A stretch of 47,577 nt of DNA from Planctomycetota bacterium (GTDB taxonomy: Bacteria > Planctomycetota > SZUA-567 > H5-PLA8): NCBI GenBank assembly GCA_045863855.1, contig BTVV01000041.1, forward strand, positions 1 to 47,577. Reading direction: 5' to 3'. Numbering within the stretch: position 1 is the first letter of the stretch; every line of letters starts with the position of its first letter. Of the stretch, positions 30,296 through 33,332 are shown one piece after another. Below the pieces are notes generated by a model, which saw nothing but the letters and a program-made list of their open reading frames with translations, had not been told where the DNA came from and made no database searches. The position numbers and the translations under genes were made by a program.

Positions 30296-31186
30296 ATGTC
30301 CGGACGCGAACGCGCTCGGATGCCGCTTGCATGGAGCGCCCTGCAGCCGTGGGTGCGCTATGCCGAGCGCGAGATCTGGCTGAGCCCGATGCCCGAGCGC
30401 GCGCTCTTCGATCACCAGTGGATTTACGTCATCAAAGGGTGGGTCCGCGCCGAGTTCGACGGGCGCAAGGTCCTGCTCCGGCCGGGCGATTTGTGGGTCA
30501 TCGAGCCCGGAGTCGCGCACGCCGGGGTGCCCGAACCCACCCAGACCGAAATCTTCGGCGTCCATTTCGATTACCGGACCCAGCCCGATTCGCCGCGCTG
30601 GCAGTATCCGCTGCACGAAGGACGCCGCGTGCCGCCGCTGCGCCGTCCCGTGAGCTTGCCGGAAAATCTCGTGCTCTCCGGCGTCTACAAAGCCGAGGCC
30701 TTGCCCGATCTGCGCGCGCCCTTTACCGATCTGGTTGCGGCCTTTCACGAACGCCGGGACGCCGACGTGCTGCGCGTGCGCGCCCGCTGGTTCGATCTGC
30801 TCTACCTGCTCGTTCGAGCGCTCGCCGGAACGGGCCGGCCCGGCGGCAGCTTGATCCGCCACCGCGCCGGCGTCGCGCGCGCCGTGACCTGGCTGGAAGC
30901 GCATTACGCCCAACCGCTCGACCGCGAAGCGCTGGCCCGACGCGTCGGCCTCAGCCCCACGCACCTGACCCACCTCTTCAAGCGCCTGACCGGCCGCTCG
31001 CCGCTGCAGCACCAGCAGCATTTGCGCATGAGCGAAGCCAAACGCCTGCTGCGCGAGACCGAACTCAAGCACCGCGAAATCGCCCGCCGCGTGGGTTATG
31101 CCGATCCGTACCATTTCAGCCGGGCCTTCAAGCAGTACGAAGGCATGGCGCCGCGCTCCTACGCCGAACTTGTCCGCCGGACCTAA
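30296..31186 (+). CDS. AraC family transcriptional regulator (cupin plus double HTH)
   Basis: LRPGDL.VIEPGVAH cupin; LARRVGLSPTHLTHLFK; IARRVGYADPYHFSRAFK. Confidence 0.93.
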   Translation: MSGRERARMPLAWSALQPWVRYAEREIWLSPMPERALFDHQWIYVIKGWVRAEFDGRKVLLRPGDLWVIEPGVAHAGVPEPTQTEIFGVHFDYRTQPDSPRWQYPLHEGRRVPPLRRPVSLPENLVLSGVYKAEALPDLRAPFTDLVAAFHERRDADVLRVRARWFDLLYLLVRALAGTGRPGGSLIRHRAGVARAVTWLEAHYAQPLDREALARRVGLSPTHLTHLFKRLTGRSPLQHQQHLRMSEAKRLLRETELKHREIARRVGYADPYHFSRAFKQYEGMAPRSYAELVRRT

Positions 31187-32840: not shown

Positions 32841-33332
32841 CTACTTCGCCAATGCGGCTTCAATGGCCTGATGCAAGGAATCGTCTTCAAAATGGCCTTT
32901 CCAGGCCACCTTCCCATCCTTGCCCACCAGGAACATGGTCGGATAGCCTTCCACCCCATAGGCCGTGGCCGTGGGGCGGGCATCCGAAAGCAGCGCGTAC
33001 TCCTCGATCTTATGCTTCTCTTTGAACTTTTTGACTCCGGCCTCCGCATCCAGCGAAGGGGCGACCACCACAAGACCCTTCTCGGCGTACTTTGTCGCCA
33101 AGGCTTTGATCTTGGGGACCGCATCGTTGCACGGCCCTCACCTCGCGAACCAAAAATCCACGAGGTGAACCTTGCCGGTCAGGACCGGCGCTTGGCCGTC
33201 CTTGCTGAACCAGGTCTTGCCCTGGAGTGCGGGCGCTGCCGCGCCTACGGCGATCCCGGGCGCTTCCCGGGCCGACGCCGCGGCGCAGAACAGGACGGCG
33301 GGGAGCATGAGCGCCCCGATTCGATGGTGCAT
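32841..33332 (-). CDS. Exported TlpA/ResA-like thioredoxin-fold protein with in-frame UGA (putative selenocysteine, UxxC)
   Basis: ORF-track pieces 33138-33347 and 32841-33101 are in the same frame, separated only by TGA (33140-33138): VHLVDFWFAR-U-GPC-NDAVPKIKAL...YGVEGYPTMFLVGKDGKV. GGAGG RBS before ATG 33332; signal peptide; 163 aa. Confidence 0.85.

Follow-up and report, generated by a model that had tools for sequence, protein, structure and literature searches.

The closest described systems to the locus reported here are bacterial selenoproteins of the UxxC type, in which selenocysteine (Sec) takes the first position of a CxxC motif. UxxC selenoproteins of the TlpA-like, redoxin and Prx-like types are already included in Table 1 of PMC13188914, and the first such UxxC family was predicted in PMC1088965. 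The consensus bacterial SECIS has a loop of 3-9 nt with a G at loop position 1-2 and a stem of 4-16 bp, lies 16-37 nt from the UGA and has an energy of <=-7.5 kcal/mol (PMC13188914); a loop 16-37 nt after the UGA is likewise given as the bacterial consensus in PMC10778597. In BSepDB, 87.4% of the entries have a canonical SECIS, whereas the remaining 12.6% do not, which is said to suggest uncharacterised features (PMC13326102). In the gene described here it is the recoding signal that is unusual, a predicted atypical distant SECIS of which the original prediction had made no mention, and not the class of UxxC TlpA-like proteins to which the product belongs.

The window, i.e., the whole stretch of DNA that was analysed, comprises 47,577 nt from a Planctomycetota bacterium. 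On its minus strand, positions 33332-32841 translate as one 163-codon frame with a single interruption, the TGA at 33140-33138 (codon 65), so that the two ORFs which had been proposed to join across this TGA are indeed continuous. The translation runs over 64 residues to the TGA and then over 98 residues up to a TAG, and reads DFWFAR-U-GPC around the interruption. With TGA as U, the 163 aa product carries U65 as the predicted N-terminal residue of the UxxC motif, Cys68 (33131-33129, -) as predicted resolving cysteine, which is invariant across 30/30 rows of the protein alignment A4, and a downstream GYPT motif, whose Pro131 (32942-32940, -) is located at the thioredoxin cis-proline position by sequence. 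The Shine-Dalgarno sequence AAGGAGG (33344-33338, -) lies 5 nt ahead of the ATG, and similar GGAGG motifs precede the starts of the homologs. Residues 1-21 (33332-33270, -) likely form a Sec-pathway signal peptide, judging by a basic, hydrophobic and A-S-A sequence pattern and by hydrophobicity, with the strongest hydrophobic 11-mer of the N-terminus at residues 7-17. Downstream of the stop codon there is a terminator-like hairpin of 14 pairs with a U-run (32822-32792, -). The gene had been suggested to have its own terminator, and hairpin and U-run are present; however, such hairpins are no commoner here than in shuffled sequences (1 found vs 1.2 expected), so that only the place after the stop carries information.

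The protein search yielded 23 matches, among them Cys forms of full length with 66% identity and a homolog with 33% identity that is labelled Planctomycetota. Several of the database matches are C-terminal halves of ~93 aa which begin after the active site, and thus annotation does split such genes, as had been anticipated. That gene callers list these halves as separate proteins could also speak for a TGA that arose by nonsense mutation or assembly error, leaving a pseudogene or two small genes. This explanation is extremely unlikely, since 14 other distinct genes with 43-80% identity carry a TGA at exactly the same codon in independent assemblies, with conserved sequence on both flanks, intact RBS and intact putative signal peptides. 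Furthermore, there is no conserved in-frame start past the TGA, ORFs in the -1 frame range from 2 to 84 codons, and the RNA constraint described below is specific to the TGA forms. The 14 TGA homologs originate from related genomes and one metagenome scan; L076, which duplicates L074, was left out. Cys forms at the same codon were available with DNA sequence for five genes, one of which (L029) scored below the bit threshold and was added by hand. Among 40 related genomes, TGA-interrupted matches were found in 11 of the 23 relatives positive for selA/selB and in none of the 17 negative ones, with matches as such present in 15 of the latter, but all TGA cases fall within one taxonomic family and the comparison is therefore not an independent test. 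One match of the relatives' search is not part of this comparison, and the three Sec-negative genomes within the TGA-bearing family are 79-91% complete. No close members were found outside this family (f1) among 62 genomes of the class and 401 sampled genomes of the phylum, and a search of genome contigs for related loci gave only 4 distant matches. In the phylogenetic tree, Sec and Cys forms fall together into a group of 24 rows (94/88) whose interior is unresolved, and hence the tree gives no direction of change between Sec and Cys.

The genome, which is 94% complete, encodes SelA, SelB, SelD and a tRNA-Sec with the anticodon UCA. The genes for SelA, SelD and tRNA-Sec are clustered on contig C231 and selB is located on C192, all of them above the curated cut-offs, and selD itself contains an in-frame TGA. 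Neither a lack of Sec machinery nor a set of close homologs with TGC or TGT throughout was thus found. A second UCA call by ARAGORN (C125) is absent from the Rfam hits. The 4248 model-selected ORFs of the genome end in TGA (1688), TAA (1322) or TAG (1114), or at contig ends (124). As TGA is the commonest stop and also ends the gntR-like and deoC-like frames of the window that had been pointed out before, a general reassignment of TGA is not indicated. It might be that the UGA is read as Cys by a tRNA of the ReC type, or leaks as Trp, with no selenium being inserted. SECIS-dependent UGA-to-Cys tRNAs exist (PMC13582414), and the SECIS of this gene is atypical. However, the only credible UCA tRNA in the 94% complete genome matches tRNA-Sec with 70.7 bits and lies beside selA and selD, TGA forms occur only in selA/selB genomes, and Trp would remove the nucleophile, which makes this explanation very unlikely. 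On the sequence data, the TGA gene very likely decodes selenocysteine and presents a real selenoprotein gene of a known class.

The assignment to a TlpA/ResA-like fold and family, which the original prediction had put forward, agrees with profile matches, an AF2 model and structure comparison. Pfam AhpC-TSA and Redoxin both match with equal scores. The AF2 model, with U modelled as C, has a pLDDT of 95.9, and the best folds are those of ResA/DsbE (TM ~0.75). The features of TlpA-like proteins (cd02966) are present, namely a thioredoxin fold with the TlpA insertion, the UxxC at a helix start and the downstream Pro. The NCBIfam cut-offs are not reached by the window protein for ResA (NF002854, 58/170 bits), DsbE (TIGR00385, 30/123 bits), TlpA (NF047696, 29/230 bits) and WAxxUGC_long (NF041054, 21/300 bits), and no member of alignment A4 was shown above an NCBIfam cut-off. 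With the ResA/DsbE(CcmG)/TlpA envelope reductases (PDB 3gl3, 2l5o, 1st9, 1kng) the protein has in common the fold (TM ~0.67-0.80), a likely N-terminal export signal, the xxC site and the motif at the cis-Pro position, but Sec would replace Cys and the identity amounts to only 22-37%. Since UxxC TlpA-like selenoproteins have already been catalogued, the protein joins a known class as a new member; it shares with this class the TlpA-like fold, predicted Sec as the first residue of CxxC, Cys homologs, the in-frame UGA and the SelABCD machinery. It differs from the catalogued members in that the subfamily reads FWFx(G/R)UxxC, lacks the Trp that usually precedes the nucleophile and has no near SECIS. 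The protein adds an uncatalogued subfamily to the class and mends a split annotation.

By analogy to these reductases, the product is likely an exported TlpA-like envelope reductase, with Sec65 as nucleophile, Cys68 as resolving residue and DsbD as putative electron donor; a fused DsbD is encoded on contig C40. After export and cleavage of the signal peptide behind Ala21, the Sec65 selenolate would attack a substrate disulfide in the envelope, Cys68 would resolve it and DsbD would re-reduce the enzyme. The periplasmic location and the selenoenzyme character that the original prediction had assigned to the protein are putative. The Sec enzyme could instead act as an oxidase, isomerase or peroxidase that is not fed by DsbD. 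In this context, the inner dipeptide of UxxC varies widely within the gene family (GP, GG, PW, PE, PG, GA) and paralogs occur in tandem (L073 and L078), so that the redox potential may vary, and the equal scores of AhpC-TSA and Redoxin also speak for such a role. However, ResA/DsbE/TlpA reductases come closest both in sequence and in fold, the UxxC is a dithiol-type site and not a TxxU site as in peroxiredoxins, and DsbD is present; a non-reductase role is therefore rather unlikely. Regarding the pathway in which the predicted reductase acts, the gene is neighboured by genes for a Rieske oxygenase subunit and an AraC regulator. Genes of the ccm/ccs type or dsbD do not adjoin it in the window, nor do they adjoin its homologs in the loci examined; both cytochrome c assembly genes are located on other contigs, and no shared neighbour was apparent when the homolog loci were read by eye. 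As the gene is monocistronic and has no conserved neighbours, general envelope redox repair is likelier than a dedicated role in cytochrome c maturation. The AraC-like ORF (window 30296-31186, -) has 297 aa with the stop counted; the blank Pfam result of this stop-bearing query is unreliable.

A simple detector for canonical GU-loop hairpins 16-37 nt after the UGA found no such hairpin in any of the 15 Sec genes of the gene family, i.e., the window gene and its 14 TGA homologs. With the same detector, near hairpins were identified in 4/4 other TGA genes of the genome and in 15/21 distant Sec paralogs (2.4 expected), as compared to 1/39 distant Cys genes (1.8 expected). The best constrained near candidate of the window gene has -6.9 kcal/mol and is no better than recodings (17/40), and Rfam yielded no match near any gathering score. 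Several other candidates were rejected. A near loop at +18 showed no covariation (57.8% paired, 241/500 shuffles as high), the +1..+22 hairpin of the window gene was not significant (z -1.5 to -1.9), a hairpin at +37..+56 also forms in a Cys gene and was kept only as inner part of the spacer described below, and a weak hairpin enclosing the UGA consists mostly of G-U pairs. An energy-based test of a near-SECIS model gave no support, whereby its power was low and even SelD failed. Pairing of the variable loop of tRNA-Sec with the sequence around the UGA was discarded as well, as this loop is present in only 1/16 of the relatives' tRNA-Sec.

A sliding consensus fold along the gene revealed one dominant signal at +79..+97 after the UGA, with a z of ~-10 vs synonymous recoding. 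It corresponds to the 7-bp hairpin CCUUCGC-UGGAU-GCGGAGG (33059-33041, -), which we consider the candidate distant SECIS. The hairpin is near-invariant and present in 15/15 Sec genes, with a GGA loop (33051-33049 in the window gene) that is UGA in L025; in one Sec gene it lies 6 nt nearer to the UGA. The loop starts 85-86 nt after the UGA, which is more than twice the textbook bacterial limit. In 10 of the 15 genes the hairpin falls on the peptide PS(L/Q)DA(E/K), whose codons are the same or nearly the same throughout, among them the rare CCT (8% usage), and the other five encode P(T/A)PE(A/V)E instead, with the upper stem and the GGA loop kept (again UGA in L025). The peptide PSLDAE also occurs in two Cys homologs (P0002, P0003). 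Codon identity of same-residue pairs at the hairpin is 0.98, compared to 0.43 expected and a gene average of 0.57, and constitutes the synonymous-conservation peak of the gene; at four-fold sites the median is 0.46, close to saturation. The possibility that an overlapping antisense gene causes this conservation was rejected, as the antisense frame is broken in 4/15 genes and only a local stretch is conserved. Pairing of the helix amounts to 86.7% in the Sec genes vs 25% in the Cys genes. Compensatory changes that alter amino acids were observed, namely from G-C to A-U and, in the closing pair, between C-G, A-U and U-U. The covariation is modest (2/8 pairs change both sides, 37/500 shuffles as high), because most pairs never vary and are thus uninformative in this respect. 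Folded as single sequences, the hairpin regions mostly have energies not beyond those of recodings (145/300 for the window gene). In shape and energy the hairpin resembles a canonical bacterial SECIS, with 7 bp, a 5-nt loop, a G at position 2 and ~-11.5 kcal/mol (identical hairpin in L074), and like such elements it lies in the coding region. It differs from them in the position of the loop, in having GGA instead of GG/GU-U and in a predicted looped-out spacer through which it would come close to the UGA. The other four Sec genes of the genome have GGU loops, unlike the GGA loop of the window gene.

The segment from +12 to +102, the part expected outside the ribosome, was folded, which yielded a long helix from ~+16 to +77 (33122-33061, -) that directly abuts the distant hairpin and would loop out ~60 nt. 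For the window gene, pairing is predicted with probabilities of 0.82-0.95 in the bottom helix and 0.95-1.0 in the hairpin. Spacer helix and hairpin occur together in the MFE structures of 15/15 Sec genes, with 0.3 expected from same-amino-acid recodings, vs 0/5 Cys genes; the positions for this comparison were selected post hoc, the genes are related to one another, and the five Cys controls are few and more divergent. The share of paired cells amounts to 79.8% in the Sec genes compared to 42.2% in the Cys genes, and in L027 the layout is kept despite a 6-nt deletion. The spacer in its fixed register is 76.8% paired (2/500 shuffles as high), compared to 33-53% when slid, and 6/19 of its pairs change both sides (34/500 shuffles as high). 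The register differs from gene to gene, and with RNAalifold the outer helices did not emerge as a fixed-register consensus. The same layout is found in the six distant Sec paralogs without near SECIS (L085, L091, L088, L099, L060, L067), where the spacer leads into a hairpin with a loop of the GGUC or GU type ~60-80 nt after the UGA. If the spacer is collapsed, the loop of the distant hairpin comes to lie ~22-23 nt from the UGA and thus inside the canonical window of 16-37 nt.

Taken together, it is quite probable that the UGA, very likely Sec65 of an exported TlpA-like U-G-P-C reductase, is recoded by the hairpin 86 nt downstream, folded back by the spacer. A ribosome positioned at the UGA would leave the mRNA free from ~+12 onward; pairing of +16..+30 with +61..+77 would then place the start of the hairpin ~16 unpaired or adjacent nt from the UGA, and SelB-GTP-Sec-tRNA would bind the G of the hairpin loop and deliver Sec. 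It could also be that the UGA is decoded as Sec by means of a proximal or non-canonical signal, such as the spacer helix, the +1..+22 hairpin or the GG-UGA context, and that the distant hairpin serves, e.g., pausing or mRNA stability. The spacer helix starts at +16 and thus at the usual place of a SECIS, the window gene can form the above-mentioned +1..+22 hairpin, and the loop of the distant hairpin is not GGU. However, the apical spacer varies in sequence and register, whereas the distant hairpin is almost invariant and has its loop G at position 2 in accordance with the consensus. Moreover, the near candidate helices lack covariation, and six distant paralogs do have a loop of the GGUC or GU type in the distal hairpin. 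A proximal signal is therefore quite unlikely.

The codon context of the UGA bears on the same question. The codon directly 5' of the UGA is a rare AGG in the window gene (33143-33141, -) and ends with GG in 14/15 Sec genes of the family (~3 expected). Where the distant Sec paralogs have Gly or Arg ahead of the UGA, its codon ends with GG as well (5/5), but this does not hold for the selD of the genome. Before real stops, NGG was counted in 45/1831 cases for TGA, 116/1207 for TAG and 99/1421 for TAA, so that real TGA stops avoid the context which might act as proximal signal. However, for each of the seven amino acids tested, codons ending in G are underrepresented ahead of real TGA stops, and thus the avoidance is not specific to GG. 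The GG-UGA context may add to the recoding efficiency; it might go back to an ancestral TGG (Trp) or reflect a context of weak termination. Re-initiation driven by an SD-like GRGG-UGA was rejected due to the variable -1-frame ORFs and the lack of a conserved in-frame start mentioned above. The match of GRGG-UGA to the anti-SD presumes a 16S 3' end that we took as given, as the 16S 3' end is not recognisable in the assembly.

For the preferred reading, recoding by the distant hairpin, there is an artificial precedent. Su, Li and Gladyshev reportedly found in 2005 that an engineered distant SECIS worked in E. coli when base-pairing brought it near the UGA. That element is said to have been located in the 3' UTR and to have been inefficient, whereas the one described here would be natural, in-frame and conserved. 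In the open-access papers searched we found neither a natural distant bacterial SECIS nor a description of this TlpA subfamily; BSepDB entries and supplements may list the gene. The recoding signal is probably a new architectural variant. It is also fairly likely that the lineage has a second natural SECIS architecture, in which a spacer helix loops out 40-60 coding nt and thereby lets a SECIS with a GGA, GGUC or GU loop function from 65-90 nt downstream. If this holds true, a looped-out SECIS would free the active-site helix from encoding a hairpin and might account for some of the 12.6% of bacterial selenoprotein genes in the catalogue that have no canonical SECIS. It would also extend SECIS-based gene finders and provide a design for recombinant selenoproteins in which the residues next to Sec are unconstrained.

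Besides the distant hairpin, a second, weaker consensus hairpin (z -4.4) was observed at ~+196 to +215 (~32942-32923, -) over the codons for PTMFLVG, where the peptide is conserved. As a hairpin is found at the matching place in one Cys gene, it is probably peptide-driven. Family searches, which present an incomplete selenoprotein census, led to the identification of three more TGA-interrupted genes in the genome. These are an exported TlpA paralog on C92 (G000:C92:13558; L058:419-1429, -) with FWGTR-U-GPC, a long helical tail and a canonical near SECIS (GGU loop, +25), a membrane-anchored SelL-like redoxin on C19 (G000:C19:11568; L123:1222-1950, +) with FW-U-PSC and a GGUC-loop SECIS (38 bits vs a cut-off of 120), and an HMA-domain protein on C3 (G000:C3:15006; L136:1384-1725, +) with a signal peptide, a single HMA/MerP-like domain, MT-U-GGC and a GGUC-loop SECIS, which is below every NCBIfam cut-off. 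A genome-wide census of TGA read-through by codon usage was too noisy for use, and a refined version gave 76 TGA, 81 TAA and 55 TAG candidates, i.e., no excess of TGA, missed SelD and does not represent the full selenoproteome. Two further loci contain tandem arrays of three (L073:5-1883) and two (L078:90-1353) Sec paralogs that belong to the gene family studied here, with differing UxxC dipeptides (GG, PW, PE). BCP-type peroxiredoxins with TPG-U-T are encoded by L059, L062 and L068 in the relatives G015, G003 and G010, respectively. The relative G003 carries two tRNA-Sec genes (C135 and C73; L161, L171), and in the source genome 26 tRNA genes are arrayed on one strand (G000:C1:23667-28178).
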